Assembly (NCBI GenBank): GCA_963736525.1
Contig: CAVTPF010000004.1
Coordinates: forward strand, 44,989-108,988
DNA from: an uncultured Acidimicrobiaceae bacterium
GTDB lineage: Bacteria > Actinomycetota > Acidimicrobiia > Acidimicrobiales > RAAP-2
DNA: 64,000 bases
Direction of reading: 5' to 3'
Both the position numbers and the translations under genes were made by a program. Shown here piece by piece: positions 26,986-46,362 of the stretch (positions are counted from its first letter, which is position 1; every line of letters begins with the position of its first letter). Below the pieces are notes generated by a model, which worked only from the letters and a program-made list of their open reading frames with translations, was not told where the DNA came from and searched no databases.

Positions 26986-28953
26986 CTACCAGTCGAGGGT
27001 GAAGGTGAAGGTCGCCGGGGCGAAGTCGGTCGACCCGGCAGAGCTGATCGTCACCATGGCACTGGTGCCGGGGAGGCCCGAGAGCTCGTTGGCGGCGATC
27101 GTCCAGAAATAGTCCACCTGCCCTGTGGCGGCATCCGAGGAGGGAGCGCTCTCGCTCGGGTCCGTGATCCCCAGGGCGGTCGTCTCGTCCGTCGTCCCGT
27201 CGACGACGTCGACGGACAACGGACCCGGCGGCGTCCCGTTGCCGGTTGCGACGGCACCCAGCTGCACGCTGATTTCGTTGGCGTCCGCGGGGACAACGGT
27301 GACCGTGCCTCCGTTTGACAGTGACTGTGTGGTGCTCGAGGTGAGGTCCTCGGTGCTGGCGGTGAGGCTCACGGCACCGATGTCGTAGAAGGCCTGGACC
27401 GCGGGGGACGTCGTCGCGAAGTCGCCCGGCGCGTCCGAGAAAGACGAGAAGGTGGCGTCCACCTCGTTGCTCAGTCCCGGGCCGATCGTCGGGTCGGTGG
27501 TGAACGTCGCCTGCCCGTTCACCAGTTCCACCGGCGTGTCGGTTCCCAGCTGGGAGAAGGTGACGTCGCCGGTCGGCGTCAGACCGCCGCATGACGGCGA
27601 GCAGGTCACGGTGGCGGTGTAGGTCACGGGCACACCGAATGGGGTGGACGTCGTGTTCGGGGTCAAGGTGAGCGCCGTCGGCGCCGCGTCGACGGTGAGG
27701 TCGGTGCTGGCCGTGGAGGACGCGTTGAACGCGTCTCCCGTGTAGCTGGCCGTCACCGTGTAGTCACCGGCGTCGAGGTTGTCCGGGGTCGTGAAGCTGG
27801 CCTGGCCGGCCACGAGTGGCACCGTCGTGATTCCGGTGCCGGCGGAGAACTGGACAAAACCGCTCGGCGAAGTGCCACCGGTGACCGTCGCGGTGTAGGT
27901 CACCGCCGACGACTGGTAGGTGACTGGATCGGTCCCGCCGGACAGCGTCAGCGTCGTCGGCTGGGGGATCACCCCGGCACCCTGGACGACAAGCACGAAG
28001 TCCTGCGTCGACGAAAGACCGTTGCTCGCACTCACGTCGATCGGGTAGTCCCCCTGGGTCCCCGCGGCCGGTGCGCCCGACAGGTTGACCGCGAAGCCCT
28101 TTCCGTTGTGCACGGAGTGGAGCATCATGCCCGTGGGGGGCGCGCCAGTGACGGTCACGTTGGCCATCTTCGGAAACCCGGGCGTCCCCGCGATGCTCAC
28201 TGCGGTCGTTGGGGTGGCGCCCGCCGTGACGGTTGCCATGCCCGAGTCCGTGAAGGTCGGCGCCTCGTCGACGACGAGTTTGCAGTGCAGGTTCCGAGTC
28301 GTGTTGTTCGCATCCGAGGAGTACTGCAGCCCGTAATTGCCACCGGTACCCGGTTCGGGCGTGCCCGACAGGACACCGGCATCCTCGTTGTTCACATCCT
28401 GGTTGAACGAGATCCCCGAGGGGAGCGAATTGTTCTCGTCCAGCCCGAAGAAGGGCGGATAGGCGATGTCGGACTGGTCGTCATGGGTGTACTGCCCCAC
28501 GGTCATCGGCCCCGGGCAGAAGTTGCTGGCGAACACGGGGGTTTGAAAGACGGTGAGGTCGTAGGGCTCGGTGTCGGTGCCCTGGCTGTTCGTCGCCGTG
28601 ATCGTGATGAAGTAGTCGTTGCCCGTACCCGGCGCCGGCACGCCCGAGATGGTCGCGGACCCGCTTCCGGAGTTGAACGCCATGCCCGCCGGCAGCGCAC
28701 CCATCTCGGCGAACGTCGGCTTCGGATACCCGGTCGCGGTGATGTGCACCTCCTTGTTCTTGCCGACGACGACGGTGGCCGCGCTCTGTTTGATGGAAGG
28801 AGGCGACAGGGTTGGGGTGGCCGCGACCGGGCCAGCCATCCATACCAGGCCGAGGCCGAGGAACGACAGCGCGCTGACGAAGCACACGCCGCTCCGTACC
28901 TTCGACGCCGTCTTCGCGCCGCGCCGCGCCGCTCGCCATGGCACCCTGTGCAT
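26986..28953 (-). CDS. Secreted Ig-like-domain repeat protein (putative-Ig plus bacterial Ig-like group 3 type repeats)
   Basis: Signal peptide. Repeats include ISGVPAPGTGNDYFITITATNSQGTD and TYTATVTGGTSPSGFVQFSAG...GDYTVTASYTGD. The ATG at 28953 was chosen; the TTG at 28983 is an alternative. Confidence 0.7.
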   Translation of the reverse strand: MHRVPWRAARRGAKTASKVRSGVCFVSALSFLGLGLVWMAGPVAATPTLSPPSIKQSAATVVVGKNKEVHITATGYPKPTFAEMGALPAGMAFNSGSGSATISGVPAPGTGNDYFITITATNSQGTDTEPYDLTVFQTPVFASNFCPGPMTVGQYTHDDQSDIAYPPFFGLDENNSLPSGISFNQDVNNEDAGVLSGTPEPGTGGNYGLQYSSDANNTTRNLHCKLVVDEAPTFTDSGMATVTAGATPTTAVSIAGTPGFPKMANVTVTGAPPTGMMLHSVHNGKGFAVNLSGAPAAGTQGDYPIDVSASNGLSSTQDFVLVVQGAGVIPQPTTLTLSGGTDPVTYQSSAVTYTATVTGGTSPSGFVQFSAGTGITTVPLVAGQASFTTPDNLDAGDYTVTASYTGDAFNASSTASTDLTVDAAPTALTLTPNTTSTPFGVPVTYTATVTCSPSCGGLTPTGDVTFSQLGTDTPVELVNGQATFTTDPTIGPGLSNEVDATFSSFSDAPGDFATTSPAVQAFYDIGAVSLTASTEDLTSSTTQSLSNGGTVTVVPADANEISVQLGAVATGNGTPPGPLSVDVVDGTTDETTALGITDPSESAPSSDAATGQVDYFWTIAANELSGLPGTSAMVTISSAGSTDFAPATFTFTLDW

Positions 28954-29026
28954 CGTTGGCCAATGTACCGGCGACCCCCGCAAGCTTCGAAGCAGATCAC
29001 CCAGGTGTCACCTGGAGGTCACCCAC

Positions 29027-30361
29027 ATGTCGCACAATCGACGGACGCATTTCGGGGCGGTCATGCCCGACGCTATGGTGCCGCTCAGGACAGGCCGAGG
29101 AGTTCGAGTCGTGCCATTTGCACCGCCCGCGAAGGTAGGCCGGGCTCTCCATACGTATGCCGGCGTGGGAGCGGGCGTGGCCCTGCTCGGCACCGCGCTG
29201 GTAACGCTGCTTCGGTTCCCGTCGGCGGCGCAGGCGACCCAACTCGTCCCGCCGGGCACGCAGCCCAACGTGACGGCACAGCCGGGCACGCCTCCCGCCG
29301 GTGCGGTCGTGATCACCGACGATGCCAACGCAAAGCAACTGGTCAAGCGGGAGCCCCCGGGGACGTCGTTCGTCATCGCGTCCGGGACGCACATGCTCTT
29401 CTCTGTGATTCCGCAGGCCGGGGACCGGTTCTACGCACAACCGGGCGCGGTGCTCGACGGCGCCCACATCGCCATCACCGCCTTCAAGCCGCCACACGGG
29501 GCCACGGCGGACAACGTGGCGATCATCGGTTCGAGCGCCGCCGATCCCCTGGTGATTGAGGATTACGGCAAGAGCCAGCATTCGCAGACGGGCGCCGTGC
29601 AGACCAACAGCCAATCGCCCGCCCCGGGTGTCTACTCGACCGGCTGGTGGCTGCAGTGGGTCGAGGTCACGGGGAGTTCGTCGCGCGGCATCTCGCTCTC
29701 CAACGACATGGTGGTCCTGCAGTGCAAGGTCATCGACAACGATCGCCTGGGGATCGGTGGTGGTGGCAACGGCGTCACCATCGTGGACTCCGTCGTCTCG
29801 GACAACGGGCTGCACGTGGCACACAAGGGATGGGAGGCCGGCGGCATCAAGACCATCGCCGACAACGTCCTGATCGCGGACGACCAGATCGACGGGAACG
29901 GGGCCCCGGGAATCTGGACGGACAGCGGGGCGACGGACGTCGCCGCCCTCAACAACCATCTGTCGGGAAACACCTACGGGGTTCGGGTCGAGATCAGCCA
30001 CGACGTGACGATCGCCGCCAACACCATCGTGAACAGCGCGCAGCAGTCGGTGCTCGTGATCGCCTCGTCCGACGTGACGGTCCGCGCCAACGCGCTGGAC
30101 GGGAACTTCGGCGGGATCATCGTCGGTGGTGTCGGCCGGTACAACAAGACAGGGATCCACCTCGACGACGTCTACGTGGACAACAACAGCGTCGTCGACT
30201 CGGGGGCGACCGGGCTGCACCAGACGCCCCCGGCCGGAACGACCATCCAGTTCGACTACGACCACTTCGTCGGCGGGCACCTGCAGTGGGACGGCCACCG
30301 GATCACCTTGAGTGAGCTCCAGGCACTCGGACAGGAGCGCCACGGGACGTGGGCACAGTGA
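29027..30361 (+). CDS. Right-handed parallel beta-helix repeat protein, secreted
   Basis: Repeated short turns such as ...VIDNDRLGIGGGGNGVTIVDSVVSDNG.. and ..LSGNTYGVRVEISHDVTIAANTIVNS. The ATG at 29027 follows GGAGG. Confidence 0.7.
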   Translation: MSHNRRTHFGAVMPDAMVPLRTGRGVRVVPFAPPAKVGRALHTYAGVGAGVALLGTALVTLLRFPSAAQATQLVPPGTQPNVTAQPGTPPAGAVVITDDANAKQLVKREPPGTSFVIASGTHMLFSVIPQAGDRFYAQPGAVLDGAHIAITAFKPPHGATADNVAIIGSSAADPLVIEDYGKSQHSQTGAVQTNSQSPAPGVYSTGWWLQWVEVTGSSSRGISLSNDMVVLQCKVIDNDRLGIGGGGNGVTIVDSVVSDNGLHVAHKGWEAGGIKTIADNVLIADDQIDGNGAPGIWTDSGATDVAALNNHLSGNTYGVRVEISHDVTIAANTIVNSAQQSVLVIASSDVTVRANALDGNFGGIIVGGVGRYNKTGIHLDDVYVDNNSVVDSGATGLHQTPPAGTTIQFDYDHFVGGHLQWDGHRITLSELQALGQERHGTWAQ

Positions 30362-31962
30362 CGACCACCGGGTCGGGCACCCACCGGACCCACCGCGTAC
30401 AGACACCGAAGGCGCACAGAGCGGAAGCGCCGGCGGTCGACACCGACGCGGGTACGTTCGCCAGCGAGCTCCGGCTGCTCACCCGGGGCAGCTCGTTCGG
30501 CTTTGCCGGTCAGGCCGCCAGCGCCTTGCTGGCCTTCGGGTTCTCCCTGGCGGTGGGCCGGCTCTTCCATGCCGAGGGAACCGGGACGTTCTTCGAAGCG
30601 ATGGCCATCTTCACCATCGCCAGCAACGTGGGCGACCTCGGCGCCGACGACGGCCTGAACTGGTCGGTGCCCCGTCTCCGCGCCGCCGGGAAATCCGCCG
30701 ACATTCGTCGGCTGCTGCCGATCGCCTGCGTGCCCGTGCTGGTCATCTCCTCACTCTTCGCTCTGGCCCTCTTTGCCTTCGCGGTGCCAATCGCGCACCT
30801 CTTCACGCACGGGCACAACTCGACCCACCTGTCTTCGTTCATACGGATCCTCTGTCCCTTCGTCCCCGTCGCCGCGCTGGTGGAGGTGCTGATCGCCGGG
30901 ACCCGTGGGTTCGACCGGGTGTGGCCTCTTGCTGCCATTTGGTCGGTCATCATGCCGGCGTGCCGGCTCCTGTTGCTTCCCGTCCTCATCGCATCGGGCC
31001 TGGGGCTGCTCGCCGTCGCATACGCCTGGTCCGTGCCCATCGTGCTCGGTGCCGCCGCCATGCTGTGGACCCTGTGGATGTTCGTGGAGCGCGAGCACAG
31101 GTCGGCGGGCTCCGTCCACTCACCGGAGCGGACGAGGGTCCTGGCCCGCGCGTTCTGGACCTTCAGCGCCCCCCGGGGAGCGGCCTCCATTTGCGCCATG
31201 GCCCTGGTCTGGCTCGATGTCCTGCTCGTCGGCTACATCGTGTCGTTGCGCATGGCGGGGATCTACGGCGTGGCCAACCGCTACCTGGTCGTCGTGACCT
31301 TCGCCCTGGCAGCCGTGGGTGGGACCATCGGACCCCAGGTCAGCCGGCTGCTGTCCCTGGGACGGGTGCACGAAGTGCGGCGCCTGTACCAGGCGGCGAC
31401 GGCATGGGTGATGGCGATCGGGTGGCCCGTGTCGCTGATGCTGGCGCTCTTCGCCCCGTTCTTCATGCGGCTCTTCGGCCGGGAGTTCGCCGCCGGCGCC
31501 ACCGCCCTCACGATCCTGGCGTTGATGATGCTCTACGTCTCGGCCACGGGGAACAACACCGTCCTCCTCGTCATGTCCGGCAAGACGTCGACCAGCCTGT
31601 ACGTCGGCGTCATCACGTTGGCGGTGAACGTGGGGGCCAACCTGTACCTCATCCCGCGCCTTGGCATCAACGGTGCCGCATTGGCATGGGCGCTGAGCCT
31701 GCTCGTCGCCAACGCGATCATCACGGTGATCCTCTACCGGCGGCTGCGGCTCCATCCTCTGGGCCCGGCCTTCCTGCCGGTGATCGCGTCGGCGGTGTTG
31801 CTCGTCGGCGTGCCCGGACTGCTCTTCCGGGTGGCGTTCGGCACGCACTGGCCGGCCCTCCTGGCGACGGGCGTCGTCGCGGGCTCGGCATACCTGTACA
31901 GCCTGTGGAGGCTTCGCGAGAAGATGGAGCTCCCCGCGCTGTCGTCGGCGCTCCGTTCGTGA
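30349..31962 (+). CDS. Polysaccharide flippase (Wzx / oligosaccharide flippase family)
   Basis: About 12-14 hydrophobic helices and a polysaccharide-biosynthesis-protein-like N-terminus. The GTG start overlaps the upstream stop. Confidence 0.7.
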   Translation: MGTVTTTGSGTHRTHRVQTPKAHRAEAPAVDTDAGTFASELRLLTRGSSFGFAGQAASALLAFGFSLAVGRLFHAEGTGTFFEAMAIFTIASNVGDLGADDGLNWSVPRLRAAGKSADIRRLLPIACVPVLVISSLFALALFAFAVPIAHLFTHGHNSTHLSSFIRILCPFVPVAALVEVLIAGTRGFDRVWPLAAIWSVIMPACRLLLLPVLIASGLGLLAVAYAWSVPIVLGAAAMLWTLWMFVEREHRSAGSVHSPERTRVLARAFWTFSAPRGAASICAMALVWLDVLLVGYIVSLRMAGIYGVANRYLVVVTFALAAVGGTIGPQVSRLLSLGRVHEVRRLYQAATAWVMAIGWPVSLMLALFAPFFMRLFGREFAAGATALTILALMMLYVSATGNNTVLLVMSGKTSTSLYVGVITLAVNVGANLYLIPRLGINGAALAWALSLLVANAIITVILYRRLRLHPLGPAFLPVIASAVLLVGVPGLLFRVAFGTHWPALLATGVVAGSAYLYSLWRLREKMELPALSSALRS

Positions 31963-33185
31963 GAGTCCTCGTCGCCGCGTTCGCCTGCCGGCCGGGCGGG
32001 AGCTCGGAGACCGGCGTCGGGTGGGCGGTGGCGCGTGCCAACGCACGGCTCGGGCACGAGACGGTGCTGATCACCCAGCCCCGACATCGTGACGCGATTG
32101 AGGCCGCGCTCGCCGACGACGAGCAGCTGGCGCGCTGTCTCCGCCCCGTGTACATGGGCCTACCGGCGGGGCTGATGGAGACCTGGCAGGCCAAGGGTGG
32201 CCTGCGCGGCCTGCAGCTCTACAACCTGGTCTGGCAGGTGCGCCTGGCCCGGGTGGCGCGGCGCCTACACCGGCAGACCCCATTCGACGTCGGGCATCAC
32301 GTCACCCTCTCGACCGACTGGATCCCGAGCGGGTTGGCCTGGGTGCCGGACCTCAAAGTCGTGTGGGGGCCGCTCGGCGGCAGCGAACGCGTCCCGGTGC
32401 CGTGCCGGCCCTTCCTCGGACCCAGGGGCCGCGTCACCGAACTGGCCAGGGCGCTCGGAACCACGCCGATGCGAGCCGTCTTCGCGGGCGCCGCGGCGCG
32501 GCGGTGCTCGCTGCTCCTGGCGCAGAACGACGACGAGGCGACGGCACTGCGGCGCGTCGGGACGCCCGTCGATGTCAGACCGAACGTCTTCCTCGAGGCG
32601 GATTTCGCCGGAGGGGACATCACGCCACCAGCGACGGCGCACACGGCGCACCACTGCGCCGTGTTCGTAGGTCGGCTGCTGGCCTGGAAAGGTGTGCACC
32701 TGGCGGTGGCGGCGATGGCGCAGCCCGAGGCGGCCGCCTGGACCCTGGAGTTCTTCGGTGACGGACCCGAGCGGGGACGGCTCACCAGGTCGATCGCCGA
32801 GCGCGGCCTGCAGGAGCGCGTCAGCGTCGTGGGCCAGCGACCCCGCGCCGAAGTGCGGACCGCGCTGGCCACCGCGGACGTCCTCTTCTTCCCGAGTATG
32901 CGGGAGGCCGCGGGCTGGGTCGTGGCGGAAGCGCTGGCGGTGGGCTGCCCCGTCGTCTGCCTGCGGGCCGGCGGGCCACCGCTCATCGCCGGCGCGGCGG
33001 GCATCGCGGTGCCGCCGGGCCCCCACCTCGCACGGTCGCTCGCCCAGAGCCTGGCCGCCGCCGTCCAGCTGCCGCGCACCGTCGTGCGCTGGGACGAGAC
33101 GCAGCTGCCGGCGCTCCTCGACCGGTGGTACTCGACCGTCGGCGCGCGCGACGACCTCGACCGCTCCACCACCACACGCGCGTGA
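31959..33185 (+). CDS. Glycosyltransferase family 4 (GT-B)
   Basis: The GTG overlaps the flippase stop (GTGA). Motifs: VRVLVAAFACRPGGSSETGVGW and FVGRLLAWKG...FFPSMREAAGWVVAEALAVGCPVV (E-x7-E region). Confidence 0.8.
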   Translation: MRVLVAAFACRPGGSSETGVGWAVARANARLGHETVLITQPRHRDAIEAALADDEQLARCLRPVYMGLPAGLMETWQAKGGLRGLQLYNLVWQVRLARVARRLHRQTPFDVGHHVTLSTDWIPSGLAWVPDLKVVWGPLGGSERVPVPCRPFLGPRGRVTELARALGTTPMRAVFAGAAARRCSLLLAQNDDEATALRRVGTPVDVRPNVFLEADFAGGDITPPATAHTAHHCAVFVGRLLAWKGVHLAVAAMAQPEAAAWTLEFFGDGPERGRLTRSIAERGLQERVSVVGQRPRAEVRTALATADVLFFPSMREAAGWVVAEALAVGCPVVCLRAGGPPLIAGAAGIAVPPGPHLARSLAQSLAAAVQLPRTVVRWDETQLPALLDRWYSTVGARDDLDRSTTTRA

Positions 33186-34147
33186 GTGCCCTGCAGGTCG
33201 TCTACATCTCGGGGGCGCCGAGGAGCGGCACGACGGTGCTCGGCATGGCGCTCGGACAACTCGAGGCGGCCTGTGACATCGGGGAGTTCTGGGCGCTGTG
33301 GCGGCCGGCGTTCCGCTCCGGTGACCTGTGCGGCTGCGGGACACCGGTGCGGGAGTGTGCGTTCTGGCTCGCGGTCGCGGAGCGGTCCCTCGGGCCCGAC
33401 TTCGAGGCGAGGGGCGCGTCACTGGGCGCCCTCCACAAGCGCACGCTGGGCACGCTCAGCGCCCCCCGGGTCTGGATGCACGTGACGGGCCGGCGGCGGC
33501 GTCCCGAGTACGACGACTACGCCGACGCGCTGGGCCGCCACTACCGCGCCATCGCGGACGTGTCGGGCGCCCGGCTGATCATCGACTCCTCCAAGATGGC
33601 CGCCGACGCTCTGCTCGCCAGCACCGTTCCGGACATCTCCCTCTCGGTCATCCACCTCGTGCGCGACCCGCGCGCGGTGGCGTGGTCATGGCGCCGCCAG
33701 CGCCGCCAACCCGGGCCCCAGGGACGGGAGATGCAGCAGCAGGGCGTGCTCGCCACCGCCGCCCGGTGGGACGCCTACAACGCGTTTGCCGAGGCCCTCC
33801 TGGCTCCCCGCCTGGGTGAGCGGTTCCGCAGTCTCCGCTACGAGGATCTCCTGGCCCGTCCCGAGCAGCACATTGCGGACCTCGCCCTCTGGCTCGGGGC
33901 CGAGCCCGGCGCTGTCACGATCGAGGGGACTCCCCCCGTCCTCGCCATGACACGCGCGTCGCACCCCGTGTGGGGCAACCCCGTTCGCACGGCGACCGGA
34001 TCGATACCGCTGCGGGAGGACTCCGAGTGGCGGGACCGCATGCCCGCGCTCGACCGGGGCATTGCCACGCTCATGACGCTCCCGTTCCTGGTGCGCTACC
34101 ACTACCCCATGGGACGGACGATGGCCGAGGGCCGGCCGACGCGGTAG
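33182..34147 (+). CDS. Sulfotransferase family protein
   Basis: 5'-PSB loop ISGAPRSGTT, 3'-PB HLVRDPRAVAWSW and a CGCG...C motif. The GTG overlaps the GT4 stop. Confidence 0.75.
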   Translation: MSALQVVYISGAPRSGTTVLGMALGQLEAACDIGEFWALWRPAFRSGDLCGCGTPVRECAFWLAVAERSLGPDFEARGASLGALHKRTLGTLSAPRVWMHVTGRRRRPEYDDYADALGRHYRAIADVSGARLIIDSSKMAADALLASTVPDISLSVIHLVRDPRAVAWSWRRQRRQPGPQGREMQQQGVLATAARWDAYNAFAEALLAPRLGERFRSLRYEDLLARPEQHIADLALWLGAEPGAVTIEGTPPVLAMTRASHPVWGNPVRTATGSIPLREDSEWRDRMPALDRGIATLMTLPFLVRYHYPMGRTMAEGRPTR

Positions 34148-35082
34148 CCGTACCGCCCCATGAGGGGGAAGGCACCAACGGTGGCCTTCCGGCGGTCCAT
34201 CTGCATCATCTCCGTCTCCCAACGCCGGTCGGCCGACAGGTGCACGACTCCCGTGCGCATCCGGCTCGGATTGCCGGCAACCGTGTGGGAACGGGCGAGC
34301 CGTACCTCGTCGGTCGCCAGGAACGGGAGATCGGTCGGTGAACGGCCGAAGCGCTCGAGCACGTGACTGAGCTCGCGGGCTGGCTCCTCCATGACGTCCT
34401 CGTAGCGGAGCGCCACGTAGCGCCGCCCGAGGCGTGGCCGGATGAGCATCTCGATCGCACTGTTCCACGCCGTCCACCAGGCGGCGCTGTGCAACGCGCC
34501 ATGGTGCGGCGGGTGATCGACGCCACCCTCCACGGAGCCGTTCCTGTTGGGTCGCTCCCAGGAGAAGGCTACCGCCCGAGGGTCGCGCACGATGTGCAGC
34601 ACCGTGAGATCGACGTCGGGCCGCGACGCCAGGAGTAGCGCCTCGGCCGGGTGCTTCGACGAGTCGACGATGACCGCTTCACCCGTCGAGGCGAGCAGGG
34701 CCTGGTAGATGCCCGAGAGCACGTCCCCGTAGTTGATGGCGGTGTCGGGCGCACGTGGGGACCGTCGCCGCGCCGCCCAGTAGAGCGCGGGGAGGTCGCG
34801 CGTCCGCGCACTCTGATCCCGCATGGAACGGATCGTTCGCGTCGTGTACCCCGTCGCGGTCTCCATGGAATGCAACAACGGGCCCCACAGAGGGCAGTGC
34901 TCGACGACCTCACCGCAACCGCACAGGTGGAGCGCCGGGTCGGTGTCCCACAGCGAGCGCAGTTCGCCGACCGACAAGAACCCGGGAACCTGACCGAGGA
35001 CGCGATCGATGATCGTGGTTCCGCTCCGGCCCCACCCGCAGATGTACAGCACGCGGGATCGGACCAACGGATGTGGCCGCAT
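34102..35082 (-). CDS. Sulfotransferase family protein (paralogue, convergent)
   Basis: ICGWGRSGTT, HIVRDPRAVAFSW and CGCG...C. Only the last 327 codons of ORF 34102..36222 are real. Its 3' end overlaps the other sulfotransferase by 46 nt. Confidence 0.75.
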   Translation of the reverse strand: MRPHPLVRSRVLYICGWGRSGTTIIDRVLGQVPGFLSVGELRSLWDTDPALHLCGCGEVVEHCPLWGPLLHSMETATGYTTRTIRSMRDQSARTRDLPALYWAARRRSPRAPDTAINYGDVLSGIYQALLASTGEAVIVDSSKHPAEALLLASRPDVDLTVLHIVRDPRAVAFSWERPNRNGSVEGGVDHPPHHGALHSAAWWTAWNSAIEMLIRPRLGRRYVALRYEDVMEEPARELSHVLERFGRSPTDLPFLATDEVRLARSHTVAGNPSRMRTGVVHLSADRRWETEMMQMDRRKATVGAFPLMGRYGYRVGRPSAIVRPMG

Positions 35083-35304
35083 GCAGCGAGCGTATCCCCG
35101 CATGTTTCGCCGTCTCCATCCGGGCTGCGGAAGTGAACGTTGCATGGCTGTTTCGCGAACTCCTCGCGTCAGCGTGACACGCAGGAGACAGCCACTCGAC
35201 ATCTCTCCTCTCGCCTCAACGGGCGCGGAACCCCTTCGGTATGCTGCGCGGACCAGGTGGTGGCGACGGATCTCGGAGGCGGTGCAGCCTTGCAGGAGGA
35301 CGAC

Positions 35305-37212
35305 ATGACTGAGGTCGAGCGACCCCTCGACGATGGTGCGGAGGACGTCGGCGGCCGGCTCTCGAGCCGGCGAAACATGCTGCTGATGAGCCTCGCCGCC
35401 ATGGGCGGCGCCGCCGCCGCGACGGCGGGTTCCGAATTGCTGTCGTCGGATCCCGCCGGAGCCGACTTCGAGGCCATCCTCATCGATTCGGTGAACGTGG
35501 GAGCCCCCAATGAGGTCACCGTGCTGCAGCCGAATGCGAGCGGCAACACGTTCGGCAGCCTGTTCCGCGCCGCCATCCAGGACTGGGGCGGGCAGGTCTA
35601 CAACGTGAGGGCGTACGGCGCCACGGGCAACGGGAGCACCGACGACACGGCCGCCATTCAAGCGGCCCAGGCTGCGGCGGGACCCGGCTGCGTGTACTTC
35701 CCGCCGGGGACGTACCTGGTGGGCAGCCCGGGGGACGGGTCGCTCACCATCGGGACGCCGGGCCAGACCTTCAAGCTCGAGGCTGGTGCCGTCATCATGG
35801 CCGCCAGCGGCATGACGGCGCCGGTGATCACGGTCAACGTGGCCGGTGTCTCGCTCCTCGGGCCGGGGACGATCGACGGCAACGCGAGCGGGCAGACCGG
35901 GACGCCCGGCACCCAATTCGACTGCGTGCTGTTCATCACGTCGGGCAGCACGCTGGGCGACGACGGACTGGTCCAGGGCCTGGTCGTGCAGAACTCGGCG
36001 TGGATCGGGATCGAGACCATCAATGTGAATCGGACCCGGATCGTCCTCAACCAGATACTCAGCTGCGCGCAGGGTGCCATCTCGTCCAAGTCCACCAGCG
36101 CCAGTCCTGTCGTCGAGGGACCGAGCGTGATCGGCAACCGCGTCTCTCTCGCCGCGACGAACGTCAATGCCGGCATCAACGTGCAGGCGACCAACTCGAC
36201 CAACCCGGTGCTCTACGCGCAAATCAGTGACAATCAGGTCGACATCCCGAACGACACGGATGCGCTGGGGTACCAGGTCGAGAACTGTGCCTACTCACGT
36301 GTGGTCGGCAACCGGGGCCGCTCGCAGGGCCAGGTGTTCTCCGTCGTGGGAGGCACGGACAACGTCGTGATGGGCAACACGGCCCTCGCCATCGGCAACG
36401 GAACGGGCATAGAGTTGGGATCGAATTACTCCACGTGCATCGGAAACACGGTCGCGGCCCAGAGCTCGGGATCGGGCATCCACGCCGACAACGTCGCCGG
36501 CACCCACGTCGTCATCTCCAACAACAAGGTGACCGGTGCCCACAACGCCGGCATCAGCGTCGGTTCGTACGACCATGTGGTCGTCACTGGGAACATCGTG
36601 CACCAGTCGAGCGCCGCGGCCGCGGGATTCGGGGTGATCGAGGTCTCACCAACCAACGCAGGCCTGATCGTCATCGCGGACAACGTCCTGGACGCCCAGT
36701 CGGCGACCCAGTACGCCGTGCTCGTCGACAACCTCACGTCGACCTCGCTCCAGACCGTGATCCATGACAACACCATCCTCGGGATACCCTCAGGGGCGTC
36801 AAATGCGGCCTTTCGGTTCTCCGGCGCGGGGGTGGTGACGGACCTCCTCGTGCACGACAACACCATCGGCTCGGGCATCGTCGTCTACACACTCCTGCCG
36901 GGGCTGTCCTTCGGAGCCAACGTGCGCTTCGTCCACAACATCGTCGTGGGTGGCGCACCCGGCTTCGGGGTCAGCCCCGTCACCTTGCCGGCGTCGGGAT
37001 CTGCCTACACCAACCCCGGCCCATACACCGAGATCCTCTACCTGCAGGGCGGACGACTGGGCCCCCACAGCGGCGTGGTCAAGGACGGCCGCGACATCGT
37101 GCCGAGCGGCGTGGTCCTGAAGACTCCAGCGGCCATCTGGCTGGACCCGGGTGAGTCCGTGACCACCACCTACACCGTCGCACCGACGGCGTGGAAGGAC
37201 ATCAAGGTCTAG
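35305..37212 (+). CDS. Pectate-lyase-superfamily beta-helix protein with a Tat-type signal
   Basis: SSRRNMLLMSLAAMGGAAAATAG (twin-Arg), VRAYGATGNGSTDDTAAIQAAQ (Pectate_lyase_3-type N-cap), then beta-helix turns. The ATG follows CAGGAGGA. Confidence 0.7.
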   Translation: MTEVERPLDDGAEDVGGRLSSRRNMLLMSLAAMGGAAAATAGSELLSSDPAGADFEAILIDSVNVGAPNEVTVLQPNASGNTFGSLFRAAIQDWGGQVYNVRAYGATGNGSTDDTAAIQAAQAAAGPGCVYFPPGTYLVGSPGDGSLTIGTPGQTFKLEAGAVIMAASGMTAPVITVNVAGVSLLGPGTIDGNASGQTGTPGTQFDCVLFITSGSTLGDDGLVQGLVVQNSAWIGIETINVNRTRIVLNQILSCAQGAISSKSTSASPVVEGPSVIGNRVSLAATNVNAGINVQATNSTNPVLYAQISDNQVDIPNDTDALGYQVENCAYSRVVGNRGRSQGQVFSVVGGTDNVVMGNTALAIGNGTGIELGSNYSTCIGNTVAAQSSGSGIHADNVAGTHVVISNNKVTGAHNAGISVGSYDHVVVTGNIVHQSSAAAAGFGVIEVSPTNAGLIVIADNVLDAQSATQYAVLVDNLTSTSLQTVIHDNTILGIPSGASNAAFRFSGAGVVTDLLVHDNTIGSGIVVYTLLPGLSFGANVRFVHNIVVGGAPGFGVSPVTLPASGSAYTNPGPYTEILYLQGGRLGPHSGVVKDGRDIVPSGVVLKTPAAIWLDPGESVTTTYTVAPTAWKDIKV

Positions 37213-37217
37213 CGGTC

Positions 37218-38030
37218 GTGAACACCGGGGCTGAGCCAGTCCCTCGGGTCGACGTGCTGGGGGTGGGCATCTCGTGTGTCGATCTCGAGACCACGACGGA
37301 GATCTTCGCGAAGTGGATCGCCAACGAGGCGCGCCGGTACGTCTGCGTGACCGGCATGCACGGCGTCATGGAGTCCCAATCGGACGACGCGCTCCGGGAA
37401 ATCCACAACGCATCGGGCCTCACGACGCCCGACGGCATGTCCATGGTCTATGCGGGCCGCTGGGCGGGAGCCCGGCTCGCACGGGTCTACGGGCCCGATC
37501 TGATGGAGGAGGTCCTGGCGGCGGCGCAGGAGGCCGGGTGGTCGAGTTACTTCGTGGGCGGGGCACCCGGGGTCGCGTCGCGTCTCGTCTCGATGCTGCG
37601 GGGCCGGTTCCCAGGCCTCGTGGTCGCCGGATCCTCGAGTCCCCCCTTCCGGCGCCTCAGCGCGGCCGAGGACGAGGAGCTCGTGCAGGAGATCAATGGG
37701 TCGGGGGCCGACATCGTCTGGGTCGGCCTCGGGACGCCCAAGCAGGAGTTCTGGATGGCCGAGCACCGGTCCCGGCTCGAGCCGGCGGTGCTCGTGGGTG
37801 TCGGAGCGGCCTTCGATCTCCTCTCCGGAACCGTCCGCCAGGCCCCCCGCTGGGTGCAGCGGAGCGGCTTCGAGTGGCTCTTCCGGCTGGCCGTGGAGCC
37901 CCGGCGGCTCTGGCGGCGCTACCTCCTCAACATCCCCCGCTTCGCGGTGGCGCTGGTGCGCCGGCCCCCGACGATGCGGCCGACCCCTCCGGGGTCCCCC
38001 CTAGCGCACCTTGACGAACAAGGCGTGTGA
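37218..38030 (+). CDS. WecB/TagA/CpsF family glycosyltransferase
   Basis: VDVLGVGISCVD..., TPDGMSMVYAGR, VGLGTPKQEFWM and SGFEWLFRLAVEPRRLWRRYL. Confidence 0.8.
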   Translation: MNTGAEPVPRVDVLGVGISCVDLETTTEIFAKWIANEARRYVCVTGMHGVMESQSDDALREIHNASGLTTPDGMSMVYAGRWAGARLARVYGPDLMEEVLAAAQEAGWSSYFVGGAPGVASRLVSMLRGRFPGLVVAGSSSPPFRRLSAAEDEELVQEINGSGADIVWVGLGTPKQEFWMAEHRSRLEPAVLVGVGAAFDLLSGTVRQAPRWVQRSGFEWLFRLAVEPRRLWRRYLLNIPRFAVALVRRPPTMRPTPPGSPLAHLDEQGV

Positions 38031-39527
38031 ACTGCTCGGACCGTCGTTGGCGTCGCCCGAGTACATCGCCACCACGTCGAACGGGGAGCCAGGCTGGGGC
38101 AGGCCGCCCGTGAGCGAACAGGTCGCGCCGCTCGGGGTGAGCACGATGGCATTGGAGCCCCCGTCGCACGTGATGGCCGGCGACGACGCCGGGGTGAACT
38201 TGATCTGCTGGTCCGTCGCCGACGTCGGCGTGGTCGACAGGTCCACGGCCGGGCTGGTCGCCAAGACGGTGGTCCCGCCCGTGATGTCGCCCGGCGTCGT
38301 CAGGTCCGTCACGACATCACCGACCTGGACGTCGGCGAGCGAGCATCCCGTCACCCGGCCGACGCTCGACACCGTCGTGAGAGTGCACCCGCTCTGGGTG
38401 ATCGGCTGCGAGGTGAAGGTGAAGGTGACCGTTCCCGTGGGGACCACGCCCTGCAGCGAGGGGACGACCGACGCGGTGAAGTGCACCGGCGTGCCGTGTA
38501 CCGGCGGCATGGGATTGCCCGCCACGTAGGTCTTCGAGGAGAGGGGGTCGATGCCCTGGCTGGCGCTCTGTTGGCTTGAGGAGTAGTTGAGACTCCCGGT
38601 GTAGGCCGCCATCACGGTGTACGGCGCACCGCTGGCGACGAGCTGGCCGGCGGCCACGACGCACGTCGCCGTCCCCGTCCGGCTGACCGTGATGATGGTG
38701 CCGTTGGAACAGGCGATGGCCGGGCCTCCGCCCGTCGGCGTGATCGTGAACACGACACCGCCGGTGGGTGTCCCCGTCCCCGGGGAGACGGCGGTCACGG
38801 TGGCGGTGTAACGGGCGGCGTGGCCCGAGGGATAAAGGTCGTGGGGGTTGTCCTGGAACGTGAGGGATTCGGTGGGTGACCCCGTCGCCGGCAAGGACAG
38901 CACCATGGTGTTCGGCATCGCGTGCTTGTCGAGCGTGACGACCGTCGTCCCGCCCTGGATGGCACCCTCGGTGTCGGTGACGGTCGCACCGGGTGTGACG
39001 CCGCTGAGAGAGGGGCAGGTCACGTTCACGGTGATGTTGAGCACGCACCCGCCCTGGGTCACCGGCGAGGTGACGGCCGTCGACGTGAGCGAGACCGAAC
39101 TGTCGGAAAGGCCCACCGACTGTGTCACCGAATTGGACGAGCTGGGGTCGTTGTTGGGATCGCCGAGGTAATTGGACGTCACGACGACCGACACATCCTC
39201 GGAGGCCGAGAGCGCGGTGGTCGTGCACTGCGCCACACCGGCGACCAGCGGCTCGGTGTCCGTCGCACCCGCACAGACGTTCGGGGCACCCGGGATGGTG
39301 AAGGTCACCGAACCCGTCGGCACTGGCCCGGGAGGCACCTCCGAGACGGTCGCGGTGAAGGTGACGGATTGCCCCGTCACCGATGGGTTCGGCGAGGAGG
39401 CGAGCACGGTCTGGGTGACTGACGGGTTCGCCGACGCCGACCCACTGAACGTATACACGCCGAAACCCGCCCCCGCGAGCACCACCGCCATGGCGGCGAT
39501 CCTGACCTTCACCGGAATTCTCGCCAT
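38001..39527 (-). CDS. Secreted Ig-like-domain repeat protein
   Basis: Signal peptide MARIPVKVRIAAMAVVLAGAG. Repeated units of the form SVTFTATV...PTGSVTFTI. and ...YTVMAAYTGS. Confidence 0.7.
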   Translation of the reverse strand: MARIPVKVRIAAMAVVLAGAGFGVYTFSGSASANPSVTQTVLASSPNPSVTGQSVTFTATVSEVPPGPVPTGSVTFTIPGAPNVCAGATDTEPLVAGVAQCTTTALSASEDVSVVVTSNYLGDPNNDPSSSNSVTQSVGLSDSSVSLTSTAVTSPVTQGGCVLNITVNVTCPSLSGVTPGATVTDTEGAIQGGTTVVTLDKHAMPNTMVLSLPATGSPTESLTFQDNPHDLYPSGHAARYTATVTAVSPGTGTPTGGVVFTITPTGGGPAIACSNGTIITVSRTGTATCVVAAGQLVASGAPYTVMAAYTGSLNYSSSQQSASQGIDPLSSKTYVAGNPMPPVHGTPVHFTASVVPSLQGVVPTGTVTFTFTSQPITQSGCTLTTVSSVGRVTGCSLADVQVGDVVTDLTTPGDITGGTTVLATSPAVDLSTTPTSATDQQIKFTPASSPAITCDGGSNAIVLTPSGATCSLTGGLPQPGSPFDVVAMYSGDANDGPSSSHALFVKVR

Positions 39528-39606: not shown

Positions 39607-41211
39607 TCAGTACGCTCCCATTCGGCGCAGGACGCTGACCGGCGTCTGGAGGAGTATGCGAAGGTCCCACAAGAGCGACCATGAGCCGACGTAGACCGAG
39701 TCCAGCCGGCAGAGGTCGTCCCAACTCAGATCGCTGCGCCCACTGACCTGCCACAATCCGGTCATGCCGGGGGGCATGTCGAAGCGTGCGGCGGCCGGAC
39801 CCCGCGAGAGGGCCGGGAACTCCTCGACCGGGAACGGGCGAGGGCCGACCAGCGACATCGTGCCGCCGATCACGTTGAAGAGCTGTGGGAGCTCGTCGAT
39901 GCTGAAGCGCCGCAGGAACCCCCCCACCCTGGTGACCCGGGGATCGTGCTCCATCTTGAACCGGGGTCCGTCGGCGTCGCTCTGCTCCATGAGGTCGCCG
40001 CGCAGGGACTCCGCGTTCTCGACCATCGTGCGGAACTTCCAAATGGAGAAGTGCTCCCCACCCAGCCCGGCGCGACGCTGCCGGAAGAAGGCGGGCCCGG
40101 GTGAGTCCAACCTGATGGCGAGCACGGCGGCGAGCAGGACCGGTGCGAACAGGACCAGGGCGAGCGACCCGATCACCAGGTCGACGGCGCGCTTCCCAAA
40201 CCGGGCCAGGGTCCCGTGCTGAGCCGGCACCAGCGGCACCAGCGGCATGCCGGCCAGGTCCGCCGTGCCGGAGCGCCAGGTCATCAACTCGTAGAGCGAC
40301 GGCACAATGGCCACGTCGACCACACCGAGCAGCGGCCGGATGATTTCGGAGACGGCCAACCACGGGACCCGGGGGATGGCGACGATGACGCGGTCGACCT
40401 CGAGCTCCTCGCAGAGCAACGGCAGGTCCGCCAGGGTGCCGATGGTATCGAACCCGGGAAGAGGGTCGTCGTCGACCATGCCCAGTGCCGTGATGAGCCC
40501 GTGGCGCCGCAGGCGCTGCAGGACGTGGTCACCGGCTTCACCCGCCCCGACGACCACCACACGCTGTGCGCGCAACAGACCCAGCCGGGTCCCGAGGTGG
40601 CTCACGGCCGACCGGACCATCGGCACGGAGACGATGCTGGGGACCAGGAGGCACGCTGCCAACGCGAACGTCGCCAGCACGCCGGCCGACGATCCAACGG
40701 AGAGCAGGATGGCGACGGTGCACAGCGCCGCCACCGGCAGCGAACGGGACACCTTGGTCACGACCCCCATCCCCGACGGGATGATGCGCAGTCCGTTACC
40801 CCGGTACATGCCGTGGTACAGGAACGAGATCAGCAAGGCCGGGATGACCAGCCAGGGCGCCCAGCTCGTCGGCGCGCCGAGACCGGCGGCGGTGGCGACG
40901 CCGAGCCCCAATCCGACGGACAGCGCGGCACCCGCCAGGTCCATCGCGAGTGGGGCGATGATGCTCTGCACTCGTCGCCGGTTGGGCCTGACCCCCCTAC
41001 CGGCGCGTGCGGTGCTCGTCCGTTGGACCGGGTCGGCGGTGCGGAGCCTGGCCTCCTGGGCCTGGAGGTGTGCCAGTGGGGAGTCCGCTTCGCCGGTGCC
41101 CGGGATGGCGATCGTCGGTGGAGCGGGCTGCGTCGCGGCGGCGGATCGGAGGGCCTCAGGCGGGGGCCCAGTCTCCTCGCTGATCGCCGTCGCCACTCCC
41201 GGATCGTCCAC
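39607..41211 (-). CDS. Polyprenyl glycosylphosphotransferase (priming sugar transferase, WbaP/CpsE type)
   Basis: N-terminal helices, a Rossmann-like VVVVGAGEAGDH block, then KRAVDLVIGSLALV...RLDSPGPAFFRQRRAGLGGEHFSIWKFRTM...DELPQLFNVIGGTMSLVGPRP. The start is uncertain; the GTG at 41211 was chosen. Confidence 0.8.
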   Translation of the reverse strand: MDDPGVATAISEETGPPPEALRSAAATQPAPPTIAIPGTGEADSPLAHLQAQEARLRTADPVQRTSTARAGRGVRPNRRRVQSIIAPLAMDLAGAALSVGLGLGVATAAGLGAPTSWAPWLVIPALLISFLYHGMYRGNGLRIIPSGMGVVTKVSRSLPVAALCTVAILLSVGSSAGVLATFALAACLLVPSIVSVPMVRSAVSHLGTRLGLLRAQRVVVVGAGEAGDHVLQRLRRHGLITALGMVDDDPLPGFDTIGTLADLPLLCEELEVDRVIVAIPRVPWLAVSEIIRPLLGVVDVAIVPSLYELMTWRSGTADLAGMPLVPLVPAQHGTLARFGKRAVDLVIGSLALVLFAPVLLAAVLAIRLDSPGPAFFRQRRAGLGGEHFSIWKFRTMVENAESLRGDLMEQSDADGPRFKMEHDPRVTRVGGFLRRFSIDELPQLFNVIGGTMSLVGPRPFPVEEFPALSRGPAAARFDMPPGMTGLWQVSGRSDLSWDDLCRLDSVYVGSWSLLWDLRILLQTPVSVLRRMGAY

Positions 41212-41610
41212 CGACCCGGAGGTTAGGGAACCCAGGTAAACGGGGGTCGAACGGATTGTGATACCCGGATGATTCCGGGGTGAACAGGGGGTGGATCCGG
41301 CCTCTGGGCAGTTCGGGAATGCTGTGGGCCGACTGGAAGTCCGGTCCGCCGGCAGCGGGGGGCAGCTCGAGCACGCCCGGGAGGGTCCCGCGGATGGCCC
41401 GCGCCCCGTCCGTGTCCGCCCAACGCCACAACGTCGCCTCCGGAACGAGCCTCTGGCGAATCCGGCCCTGCCACAGGCGCCTGCGGTCGACCGCCCACGC
41501 CCGGTGGGCGAACCCGTGCGGGTCGACGTACCACGAGCCCATGCCCGACGGGTTCGCCGCGCTGCGGAGCCGTGCGGCGGCAAGCTTGGGACGGCGGCGG
41601 CGCAACATGG

Positions 41611-41811
41611 TCAGTTGTCGAAGACCCCGACCTGGGTCTTCCCGTGGAAGCCCTGGGGGGTGATGTACTCGAACTGGTCGATCCCGGCCGGCGGCACCAA
41701 GGAGGCGAAGAGCCAGGCGGGGAGCAAGCCGTTCTTGGTGTAGACGACGTTGTGACCCGTGGACACCCGTGGAGACACCGCGAGGCCGTTCGCCTCGGTC
41801 GACACGGTCAC
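41611..41811 (-). pseudogene. Decayed paralogue of the 49967..50488 lipoprotein gene
   Basis: It aligns to the 3' and central parts of 49967..50488, but lacks the signal/lipobox end (TGA just upstream in frame) and about 35 internal codons (...LPAWLFASLVPPAGIDQFEY versus ...LPAWLFAAKGEPITF...MTPPAGIGQFEY). Confidence 0.5.
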
Positions 41812-41914
41812 CGATTGTCCGTTGACGATGACGGTGCCCGACGCGAACGCGGGAGCCGTGGTGAGGCGGCCAGCGCGCCGATTTCAACAGCGAACATCAT
41901 GATTGGTATCGACC

Positions 41915-43063
41915 TCACAGGGTTGGGGGTAGCAAAAGGTACACATTTGAAAACCACTCGAGTGCCAGCGCGAGCACGATCGGCGTGCTGACGAGATACA
42001 CGGTCCAGATCTGCCGCGGTGCCCTGCGATACACGACGAAGGTCACGATGAGGGCGGCAGCAAAAACGAGGCCCCACAGCACCGACGGACCGATCGCAGA
42101 CGCGTCGCCCGCCAGCGCGCGCTGGGACGCGGGCGCGAGCGTCGTCGGGACCGGGGCATGCGCCGGTGCACTGGTCAGCTTCGCAATGACGTAGGCGCGT
42201 CCGGTGGGGATGAAGGGTGCATTGGCCGTGACCAGCGTGAGCCGCGCCGTCCTGGTGGGGCTGATCGGATCCACTTCACCAGCGGTCGCGGTGCCCACCT
42301 GTTCGACCTCGTAGCGAAACACGCCCAGGCCGGTCACGATCGTGATGGGATCACCGCGACGCAGGCTGAGGATGTGGGCGAACGGCGCACCGCTCGTGCT
42401 CCGACGACCCGCTATGACGGAGTTGCCCCTGGTCCCCGGCCGCGCCGTGCCCACCATGGCACCCGGGCCCTTTGCGGTGTCCGCGGCACTGGTCCCCTCG
42501 ACCACGACCTGCTTCAGGCCGATGCTCGGGATGAGCAGCACGGCCACCGGTTGCCCTTCGGGGGGCACGCGGCCGCTGTAGAGGGCCTGCGCTGACGGGG
42601 TCAGGAACTCGTTGAGCAGCGCGTGCTGCTCCCGCTGCTGCTGCAGGCCGGTGAACATGAACGCGTAGACGACGAAGAGCACGAGGCACGCGCCCACGGT
42701 CACGAAGCTCAGGGCCACGGCCAGCATCAGCCGGTCGGCTCGTTGCTCGGTGCTGGCGGCCGGCGCCGCGTCGGTGCGGATCGCCGTCTTGGCTCGATGA
42801 ATGACCGAGACCCTGTCGATCCCTTCGGGATCACGGAACGCCGGGACTGGCTCCGCGACGAGCGAGCGGGTGATGCGCCCCCCGGGCGCGTCCCCGTGGA
42901 GAACGCGCCGGGCCGCGCCACCCGAGCGGGTTCGCGTGCGTGGGTAACGCCCCTCCGTCGGGTCCGGGACGAAATACCTCCGCAGGCGGTGCAGTGAACC
43001 GCGACGTGGGGGCCAATCGCTCACCGGCGGTGCAGGGCGCGCCTTCTCGGCGACCGGCGTCAC
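41915..43063 (-). CDS. Class E sortase homologue with catalytic His and Cys replaced (pseudo-sortase)
   Basis: IPSIGLKQVVVEGT...KGPGAMVGTARPG..GNSVIAGRRSTSGAPF...RRGDPI...RLTLVTANAPF aligns with the class E pattern IP.LGL..VVVEGT..KGPGH..GTA.PG..GN..IAGHRTTYGAPF...LTL.TC. It has an N-terminal helix and two C-terminal helices. The start lies between 42727 (ATG) and 43063 (GTG). Confidence 0.65.
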   Translation of the reverse strand: MTPVAEKARPAPPVSDWPPRRGSLHRLRRYFVPDPTEGRYPRTRTRSGGAARRVLHGDAPGGRITRSLVAEPVPAFRDPEGIDRVSVIHRAKTAIRTDAAPAASTEQRADRLMLAVALSFVTVGACLVLFVVYAFMFTGLQQQREQHALLNEFLTPSAQALYSGRVPPEGQPVAVLLIPSIGLKQVVVEGTSAADTAKGPGAMVGTARPGTRGNSVIAGRRSTSGAPFAHILSLRRGDPITIVTGLGVFRYEVEQVGTATAGEVDPISPTRTARLTLVTANAPFIPTGRAYVIAKLTSAPAHAPVPTTLAPASQRALAGDASAIGPSVLWGLVFAAALIVTFVVYRRAPRQIWTVYLVSTPIVLALALEWFSNVYLLLPPTL

Positions 43064-43082
43064 GACAGGCGCACCGAGGAGC

Positions 43083-45560: not shown

Positions 45561-45811
45561 GGTGCCTCCCCCGACCGCGGCTCGTCCGTGACGTCGCCGC
45601 GCCGGCGACGCGCGATCGCGACGGCCGGCGGCAGGGCCAGCAGAGCCAGGAGTCCGAACGCGGCCAGAAGAACATCGGCGTTGGGCCCGGGCGACTTCAA
45701 CAGGAAAGCAGTGGTGCGCTGCAGGGCGACGCCGGCAACCTGGCCCGGCGCCGCCGAAACCTCGTTGGCCGCCTTCTTGGCCGCCGCGGCCGCGGCGGCC
45801 TTGGCCTGTGC
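45535..45811. repeat. 277-nt segment about 97 percent identical to 50710..50987
   Basis: Aligned by eye, giving about 7 substitutions and one 1-nt indel. It covers the start of the large PBP gene and the anchor-coding 3' end of the upstream ORF. Confidence 0.85.
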
Positions 45812-46183
45812 CGGGCTCGTCGGCGACGTACTGCTGCTGCCGGCACACCGGGCGCCCCAGCTCTCGGCTCGGGCTCCACCGTGAGCAGGCGCAGCGGTCG
45901 CGAGTCCTCCGGCGACGCCCCCTGTGGTGGGGGCAAAGGTAGCGGCGCCGCCGGCCGATGGCGAAGCCGACGCGCTGCCGGTCACCGGCTGCTGGAGCGA
46001 CGCGCTGGCCGATGATGCAAGGGGCGTCGCGGTTGGACGCAGTCGGGGTCGGGCGGAGGTGAAGTCACTAACCGTCTGCGTGACCATGGGGAATGCCGGA
46101 TCAGACCGCGTGAGGCGGCTCCGCAGGCGTATCGGGGTGAAGCGAGAGTCCTGCGAGGGAATGTCGGGTGCCGAGGCTGTCAC
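45557..46183 (-). pseudogene. In-frame deletion chimera: pstC N-terminus fused to the stalk and anchor of the PstS-like anchored protein
   Basis: MTASAPDIPSQDSRFTPIRLRSRLTRSDPAF matches pstC2 MTVTTPDAPAESPRFTPIRLRSRLSRSDQVF. The C-terminus ...[74 protein letters not shown] matches the tail of 50733..52448. The GTG start is the same as in pstC2, and the stop overlaps the next start (ATGA). Confidence 0.5.
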
Positions 46184-46301: not shown

Positions 46302-46362
46302 TGCCGCGTCTCTGTCTCGGAAGCCAAAACCTCAACGGATTCCGAGTGTGGATCCCTCTCGG

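Follow-up and report, generated by a model that had tools for sequence, protein, structure and literature searches.

Two paralogous predicted sulfotransferases in a Wzx/Wzy polysaccharide locus of an uncultured Acidimicrobiales bacterium

Sulfated polysaccharides have a strong affinity for cations and for water and are prized as biomaterials, and among bacteria they have been documented chemically in a few groups only. A Wzx/Wzy locus with sulfotransferase genes embedded in it is an established design for making them, found for synechan in a cyanobacterium, for the capsules of Vibrio and Cobetia and in the wps-1 cluster of an actinomycete. Our subject is a pair of genes, which we call ST1 and ST2, that sit in such a locus in an uncultured, soil-type Acidimicrobiales bacterium (GenBank assembly GCA_963736525.1). 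The stretch of DNA that we analysed, 64,000 nucleotides of contig CAVTPF010000004.1 (positions 44,989 to 108,988), is referred to as the window, and coordinates are those of the window unless another contig is named. Our favoured reading is that ST1 and ST2 are soluble cytoplasmic O-sulfotransferases dependent on 3'-phosphoadenosine-5'-phosphosulfate (PAPS), and that they decorate the lipid-linked repeat unit of a surface or extracellular heteropolysaccharide assembled by the Wzx/Wzy route. We put its probability at about 0.65.

Wzx/Wzy loci already known to hold sulfotransferases

The xss cluster of Synechocystis sp. PCC 6803 makes synechan, an extracellular polysaccharide whose sulfation has been shown experimentally (PMC8205485, 2021). 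In the model put forward for it, the repeat unit is assembled at the cytoplasmic face of the membrane and receives its modifications there before Wzx flips it (PMC8205485). Compared by cluster design, xss resembles the locus in the window in being a Wzx/Wzy cluster with two cytoplasmic sulfotransferases, XssA and XssE. It differs in being cyanobacterial and plasmid-borne, in its eight glycosyltransferases, in having regulators of its own (XssQ/R/S) and in its outer-membrane export (PMC8205485). XssA and XssE also come from distinct sulfotransferase subfamilies (PMC8205485), unlike ST1 and ST2, which are paralogues. A second precedent is provided by the capsules of Vibrio sp. KMM 8419 and Cobetia marina KMM 1449. 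According to the two reports, their sulfated structures were established by nuclear magnetic resonance and their loci share with ours a Wzx/Wzy system, a sulfotransferase and PAPS genes (PMC11641403, PMC11766843). As described there, the hosts are Gram-negative and marine, whereas the window comes from a genome in which the PAPS genes are on another contig and the sulfotransferases are two paralogues of an actinobacterial family.

The third precedent comes from within the Actinomycetota. The wps-1 cluster of Actinoplanes missouriensis (WpsA-K), published in 2026, is a Wzx/Wzy cluster with two sulfotransferases, both of which are needed for normal sporangia; sulfation is predicted from the genes, and chemical proof of it in the Actinomycetota is still lacking (PMC13390465). 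Like the locus in the window, wps-1 is actinobacterial and holds a WecG-type (GT26) glycosyltransferase, Wzx, Wzy and two sulfotransferases; wps-1 has a Wzz-type protein as well (PMC13390465). A GT2 glycosyltransferase, a GH26 glycoside hydrolase, a DUF4262 protein, a methyltransferase and a kinase-like protein are found in wps-1 (PMC13390465), whereas GT4 glycosyltransferases, two beta-helix proteins, two immunoglobulin (Ig)-like proteins and a Wzy_C-GT4 fusion mark the window. The sulfotransferases differ too, since WpsB and WpsH represent two different families (PMC13390465) and ST1 and ST2 are paralogues of one, and so do the hosts, a sporangium-forming actinomycete in one case and an uncultured member of the Acidimicrobiales in the other. 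When we searched from a Micromonosporaceae member of the ST1/ST2 family, no Actinoplanes protein appeared among the best 120 matches.

A sequence-only reading of the window had preceded our analysis, and it held sulfated polysaccharides to be essentially undescribed for an actinobacterial locus of this kind. That view has to be given up, both on account of wps-1 (PMC13390465) and because the ST1/ST2 family turned up in 82 of the 397 high-quality species genomes of Actinomycetota that we sampled (~21%). The window on its own is an ordinary example of a published design, and it adds an uncultured Acidimicrobiales lineage to the predicted producers of sulfated polysaccharides. The features worth following are those of the family as a whole: a Cys3-His signature, fusions to glycosyltransferases, frequent pairing and a presence in about one-fifth of Actinomycetota genomes.

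The two predicted sulfotransferases and their PAPS supply

ST1 and ST2 align over their full length with 37% identity (E 4e-57). They are convergent, and at their 3' ends they share 46 nt (34102-34147), a segment that encodes only non-conserved, disordered tails. ST1 carries the 5'-phosphosulfate-binding (5'-PSB) loop GAPRSGTT and the 3'-phosphate-binding (3'-PB) block HLVRDPRAVAWSW; the corresponding elements of ST2 are GWGRSGTT and HIVRDPRAVAFSW, and the motif LCGCG-x5-C is common to both. Upstream, ST1 is tied to its neighbours by two short overlaps. The GTGA at 33182-33185 sets the stop codon of a GT4 glycosyltransferase gene (TGA, 33183-33185) over the ST1 start (GTG, 33182-33184), and the GTGA at 31959-31962 does the same for the Wzx stop (TGA, 31960-31962) and the GT4 start (GTG, 31959-31961). 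All that the sequence-only reading had stated about the letters themselves, namely the open reading frames, the PSB and 3'-PB motifs, the CGCG...C motif and the 46-nt overlap, was found again as described, and the two GTGA overlaps bear out the translational coupling it had proposed from Wzx through GT4 to ST1.

The start of ST1 deserves a comment. In the public record of the protein (P0003, 303 aa) translation begins at an internal GTG (region 33182-33238 of the window), which produces a sulfotransferase without its PAPS-binding loop. That start is almost certainly wrong, because it would cut off the loop and because both the orthologues and the GTGA favour 33182. This position agrees with the N-termini of orthologues (M/V-S-D/E-L...) and with a 4-nt overlap of GT4 and ST1 that is kept in two related metagenome contigs, L024 and L025. 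A promoter and terminator scan gave no promoter-like sites and a single terminator-like site, inside ST2, which is fewer than chance expectation. The scan placed no terminator-like site between ST1 and ST2, and therefore both transcripts must run into each other.

How secure is the assignment of these proteins as sulfotransferases? Against Pfam, ST1 scores 42.8 bits with PF13469 (Sulfotransfer_3) and 33.7 bits with PF00685 (Sulfotransfer_1), and ST2 scores 39.0 and 28.6 bits, where the curated gathering cut-offs are 27 and 22 bits, respectively. NCBIfam offered no family for either protein, only a faint match to NoeE (E 0.02) plus noise. We modelled ST1 alone with AlphaFold2 (AF2), from a 40-sequence alignment, and obtained a predicted local distance difference test score (pLDDT) of 94.3 and a predicted template modelling score (pTM) of 0.92; the last eight residues, which lie in the ST2 overlap, are disordered in the model. 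The first 22 Foldseek matches of this model in the Protein Data Bank (PDB) are all PAPS sulfotransferases, as are most of the 50 listed, whose tail includes a few weak nucleotide-kinase and CTP-synthetase matches. The best match is the sulfotransferase domain of CurM (4gbm; E 4.7e-6, template modelling (TM) scores 0.53/0.59), and the other leading matches are tyrosylprotein sulfotransferases (TPSTs), the olefin synthase (OLS) sulfotransferase, the mycobacterial Stf1 and Stf9 and heparan 3-O-sulfotransferase. Identities to ST1 among these top matches are 13-19%, with TM scores of 0.6 or below. The sulfotransferase assignment made in the sequence-only reading thus stands up to profile searches and to structural comparison alike.

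Searches of the PDB with ST1 or ST2 as single sequences gave only marginal matches to CurM and OLS, and a profile was needed to bring the relationship out. The family profile finds the OLS sulfotransferase at 4e-18, that of CurM at 6e-14 and the TPSTs at ~1e-10. The key residues of ST1 are R14-S15-G16-T17-T18 in the PSB loop, E35, DSSK138 and R161...S169 in the 3'-PB block (R161-D-P-R164), and ST2 keeps all of ST1's invariant residues. Among 126 diverse members of the family, R14/S15/T18, E35, K138 and R161/S169 are invariant or nearly so, with G16, T18, E35 and R161 conserved in 100% and R14, R164 and S169 each in 125 of the 126. In the family-profile alignment the invariant G34-E35 stands opposite the P-E of CurM and OLS (the 'PPEL' segment). 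We take the glutamate aligned with E35 to be the catalytic base of the CurM sulfotransferase and the counterpart of Glu99 in TPST2, and E35 is a candidate for the same role in ST1. Neither protein has a predicted transmembrane segment or signal peptide, and so both must act in the cytoplasm, the site of PAPS. Judged by sequence and model, ST1 and ST2 are genuine sulfotransferases, and the branch to which they belong is uncharacterised.

Where that branch stands relative to known enzymes is best seen from CurM and OLS (4gbm, 4gox), the best matches in both sequence and fold among solved structures. They have in common with ST1 and ST2 an R-S-G-S/T-T PSB loop, a glutamate ~21 residues past the loop arginine and an RDPR/RHP...S 3'-PB block. 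The CurM and OLS enzymes are domains within polyketide synthase (PKS) modules whose substrate is a beta-hydroxyacyl group on acyl carrier protein (ACP), whereas ST1 and ST2 stand alone, without PKS neighbours. Our proteins have in addition the Cys3-His signature and a C-terminal H-x3-G-N-x2-R...D-x2-W module, which is conserved across the 126 members, and the TM scores between the two groups reach only 0.53-0.59. We considered three assignments and rejected each. Membership of the CurM/OLS activating sulfotransferases does not fit stand-alone proteins of ~320 aa with no PKS or thioesterase (TE) domains nearby (Pfam found none among the genes scanned, ~13-63 kb of the window); the likeness to TPSTs is too remote, at 13-19% identity, for membership of that family; and the Stf0-type trehalose sulfotransferases (PF09037) gave no Pfam match at E up to 1. 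At such identities and TM scores the acceptor cannot be read off from the closest enzymes of solved structure, and the likeness to CurM, OLS and the TPSTs is no ground for assigning ST1 and ST2 to those clades, nor is it proof that they act on a sugar. One point in favour of a sugar acceptor comes from NodH of Sinorhizobium meliloti, which 6-O-sulfates N-acetylglucosamine in the Nod factor: it too belongs to PF13469, and its PSB loop is of the R-x-G type (PMC11625862). Its acceptor is a lipo-chitooligosaccharide signal and not a polysaccharide repeat unit.

Sulfotransferases need PAPS, and the sequence-only reading had pointed to its supply as something to look for elsewhere in the genome. The search succeeded. 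The 90% clusters of RpoC and CysN/CysC include proteins from metagenome-assembled genomes of Acidimicrobiales, which places the host in that order of the Actinomycetota. The genome (4.56 Mb in 25 contigs, 94% complete) encodes a CysD (456 bits on TIGR02039) and a bifunctional CysN/CysC fusion (910 bits on NF004035), both above the NCBIfam cut-offs, and two IMPase-family genes are candidates for CysQ. From its gene content, then, this genome is predicted to be able to make PAPS. The cysD and cysN/cysC genes lie directly downstream of rpoC (contig C12:12000-24000, here L010), away from any sulfotransferase gene. The exact CysD start that we used (L010:4336) is absent from the record, and the true start may differ.

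The acceptor and the number of sulfates

ST1 and ST2 are placed between the Wzx and GT4 genes on one side and the beta-helix, WecG and Bac_transf genes on the other. Between them the genes of the locus encode a priming transferase, Wzx, Wzy_C, WecG and two GT4 domains (Table 1), so that Pfam scans uphold the sequence-only reading in calling this a Wzx/Wzy polysaccharide locus. The arrangement is not peculiar to the window. Contigs L024 and L025, both from metagenomes, have the order Ig-like protein, Wzx, GT4, ST1, ST2, WecG, second Ig-like protein and Bac_transf. Their ST1 orthologues are 64-68% identical to ours and ST2 is convergent with ST1 in both; the ST2 orthologue of L025 (57% identity) overlaps ST1 by ~43 nt. 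Both beta-helix genes are kept in L024 and are not recognisable in L025. In L024 (16391-20908) Bac_transf is followed directly by Wzy_C and GT4, called there as two adjacent genes. The distal Wzy_C-GT4 gene of the window therefore belongs to the same locus, and the pst-like/sortase-like module in front of it is an insertion.

More distant members of the family (35-40% identity) sit among GT4, GT2, WecG, Wzy_C, Bac_transf, Wzx and Wzz genes. Their hosts are Acrocarpospora phusangensis, Actinospongicola halichondriae, Micromonospora echinofusca, a metagenome-assembled genome of the Solirubrobacteraceae and one further genome, and three of these five loci have two sulfotransferases. All told, a glycan locus is the context of eight of the nine family members that we sampled. 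Other members are fused to glycosyltransferases: to GT4 (P0170), to GT2 at either end (P0237, P0265) and to a GT28_C, Alg13-like domain (P0200, P0223, P0262). It is because of the synteny, this family-wide context and these fusions that we favour a glycan as the acceptor, and the polysaccharide of the locus is probably sulfated.

The alternative is an acceptor of another kind, such as a small molecule, a lipid, or Tyr, Ser or glycan sites on the neighbouring Ig-like proteins. We regard this as distinctly unlikely, while acknowledging what speaks for it: the nearest solved structures are CurM, OLS and the TPSTs, conservation of the locus extends to its two secreted Ig-like proteins, and the ninth family member, from Actinomadura luteofluorescens (P0098, L036), is in a secondary-metabolism-like cluster, so that not every member of the family is linked to glycans. 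The neighbours of the Actinomadura gene encode Lant_dehydr_N, beta-ketoacyl-ACP synthase III (KAS III), a short-chain dehydrogenase/reductase, transketolase and LysW/LysX. Set against these points are the remoteness of the likeness to the solved enzymes, the glycan loci that surround the remaining sampled members, the glycosyltransferase fusions, the translational coupling of ST1 to GT4 and Wzx, and the absence from the scanned genes of the PKS and thioesterase that CurM-type enzymes need.

If the acceptor is indeed the repeat unit, assembly could proceed as follows. Undecaprenyl phosphate would be primed by the Bac_transf enzyme, and WecG (GT26) would extend the unit together with the GT4 glycosyltransferases. 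The two sulfotransferases, of which ST1 would be translated along with Wzx and GT4, would then transfer sulfate from PAPS to hydroxyls of the unit at the cytoplasmic face of the membrane, after which Wzx would flip the sulfated unit and Wzy_C-GT4 would polymerise it, aided by the putative kinase-like co-polymerase. Three parts of this scheme we infer: the acceptor itself, the timing of sulfation before flipping and the action of the two enzymes at two different positions.

The last of these bears on the prediction, made in the sequence-only reading, of a doubly sulfated repeat unit. Since ST1 and ST2 each have the complete catalytic set, there are likely to be two sulfation activities, and a doubly sulfated unit is plausible. 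The glycan might instead be sulfated and not doubly so, if the paralogues worked as one unit (for example as a heterodimer with one productive site), were redundant or served as condition-dependent alternatives; at any one time the repeat unit would then bear a single sulfate or no sulfate. ST-ST tandem fusions in which both halves belong to this family (P0123-P0125) show that pairs can act as a single polypeptide, and the convergent overlap with no terminator-like site could make the expression of ST1 and ST2 mutually interfering. There is also a sister locus, in contigs L026 (10971-12842) and L027 (4477-6347), where Wzx, GT4 and ST1 are kept and ST2 is replaced by an S-adenosylmethionine (SAM)-dependent methyltransferase and an unrelated Sulfotransfer_3 protein, a swap of the kind to be expected if genes for glycan decoration vary as cassettes. 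We nevertheless think such an outcome unlikely. Not one of the invariant residues for catalysis or PAPS binding is missing from either protein, the ST2 orthologue has been retained in L025, and the divergence of the pair fits different specificities. In the family tree ST1 falls in a well-supported sub-clade drawn from metagenomes only and ST2 forms a long branch among mainstream members; non-sister branches and 37% identity together make the pair old, and on the same two grounds we rejected a recent tandem duplication.

A further possibility, to which we give very little credence, is that the genes are intact yet idle, as parts of a rearranged locus in which an accessory cassette has fallen silent or is decaying. 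The insertion of ~14 kb does split the locus between Bac_transf and Wzy, and the genes are rare in the genus, with a sulfotransferase homologue in two of the 24 congeners searched and the partner GT4 in one of 60. Such patchiness is usual for surface-glycan loci, however, and all frames are open and free of stops, the invariant residues are complete in both sulfotransferases and the coupling overlaps are intact. A search of genome contigs for related loci returned one distant locus only, at 29% identity.

Some of what we found tells against sulfation of the repeat unit by ST1 and ST2, or at least against parts of it. The nearest solved relatives use acyl-ACP or tyrosine and not sugars, and the Actinomadura member stands outside any glycan locus. 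The PAPS genes are unlinked to the locus, on another contig, and the window has no nucleotide-sugar genes to reveal which sugars are used. The exchange of ST2 in the sister locus means that the second sulfation is no fixed feature.

A large family, and further features of locus and genome

An exhaustive profile search places ST1 and ST2 in a family of at least 6,040 clusters at 50% identity (E 1e-30 or better). In the sample of 397 genomes it is near-saturated in some taxonomic families (30 of 33 and 18 of 24 genomes), and adjacent pairs occur in many genomes. Its hallmark is C50, C52, C59 and H261 (Cys-x-Cys-x6-Cys...His), all four conserved in 100% of the 126 diverse members; the codons for these residues in ST1 are at about 33329-33358 and at 33962-33964 of the window. 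In an enzyme of the cytoplasm, invariant residues of this kind point to a possible structural zinc site. That ST1 and ST2 are members of a large clade of glycan sulfotransferases, so far unstudied and defined by the Cys3-His signature with its possible zinc site, seems to us an even bet. Should it be true that these enzymes sulfate Wzx/Wzy units, sulfated polysaccharides of the envelope or the extracellular space would be common among the Actinomycetota of soil, which would contradict published statements that confine bacterial sulfated polysaccharides to cyanobacteria. The family is very common among actinobacteria and its hosts include culturable organisms (Actinospongicola halichondriae, Micromonospora echinofusca, Acrocarpospora species and Phycicoccus endophyticus), in which the predicted sulfation of glycans, the nature of the acceptor and the function of the Cys3-His residues are directly testable.

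Table 1. Features of the polysaccharide locus in the window, with further Sulfotransfer_3 genes of the genome (given by contig)
Feature	Coordinates	Strand	Evidence or remark
Ig-like repeat protein, secreted (Big_3_5, He_PIG), left edge of locus	26986..28983	-	Pfam; syntenic in L024, L025, L026
Right-handed beta-helix protein	29018..30361, start approximate	+	Beta_helix 6.6e-15; also in L024, L026
Wzx-type flippase (Polysacc_synt/MatE)	30349..31962	+	Pfam
GT4 glycosyltransferase, coupled to Wzx and ST1	31959..33185	+	Glycos_transf_1 3.8e-25
ST1, predicted PAPS-type sulfotransferase, 321 aa	33182..34147	+	Pfam, AF2 model
ST2, predicted paralogous sulfotransferase, 326 aa	34102..35082	-	Pfam, same invariant residues as ST1
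Second beta-helix protein, pectate-lyase-like N-terminus, divergent from ST2	35140..37212	+	Pfam
WecG/TagA/CpsF-family (GT26) glycosyltransferase	37191..38030	+	Pfam 5.6e-61
Second Ig-like repeat protein (Big_3_5)	38001..39527	-	Pfam
Priming polyprenyl-phosphate sugar-phosphate transferase (Bac_transf + CoA_binding_3)	39607..41583	-	Pfam 2.2e-60
pst-like/sortase-like gene module, ~14 kb	41611..55735		Lies between Bac_transf and Wzy_C-GT4
Wzy_C-GT4 fusion, one 921-aa frame	55846..58611	+	Wzy_C 2.6e-11, 44 bits (cut-off 31.7)
Co-polymerase/tyrosine-kinase-like protein, 765 aa	58682..60979	+	AAA_31 4.6e-10
GH18	61010..62980	-	Pfam
Further Sulfotransfer_3 genes	C23:57062-57808; C3:41376-42128; C4:149812-150546; C10:36911-37648

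The genes of the window upstream of 26.9 kb have no relation to the locus. The first beta-helix protein may be a glycan lyase, a depolymerase or an epimerase. In the co-polymerase-like protein Pfam finds the AAA_31 ATPase domain and detects no Wzz domain. The pst-like and sortase-like neighbours in the window are echoed in the glycan locus of Acrocarpospora phusangensis (L028), which has sortase genes, a PBP_like_2 protein and a second sulfotransferase. Elsewhere in the genome of the Acidimicrobiales bacterium there are at least four further strong Sulfotransfer_3 genes (E 1e-34 to 1e-45), all of other subfamilies.

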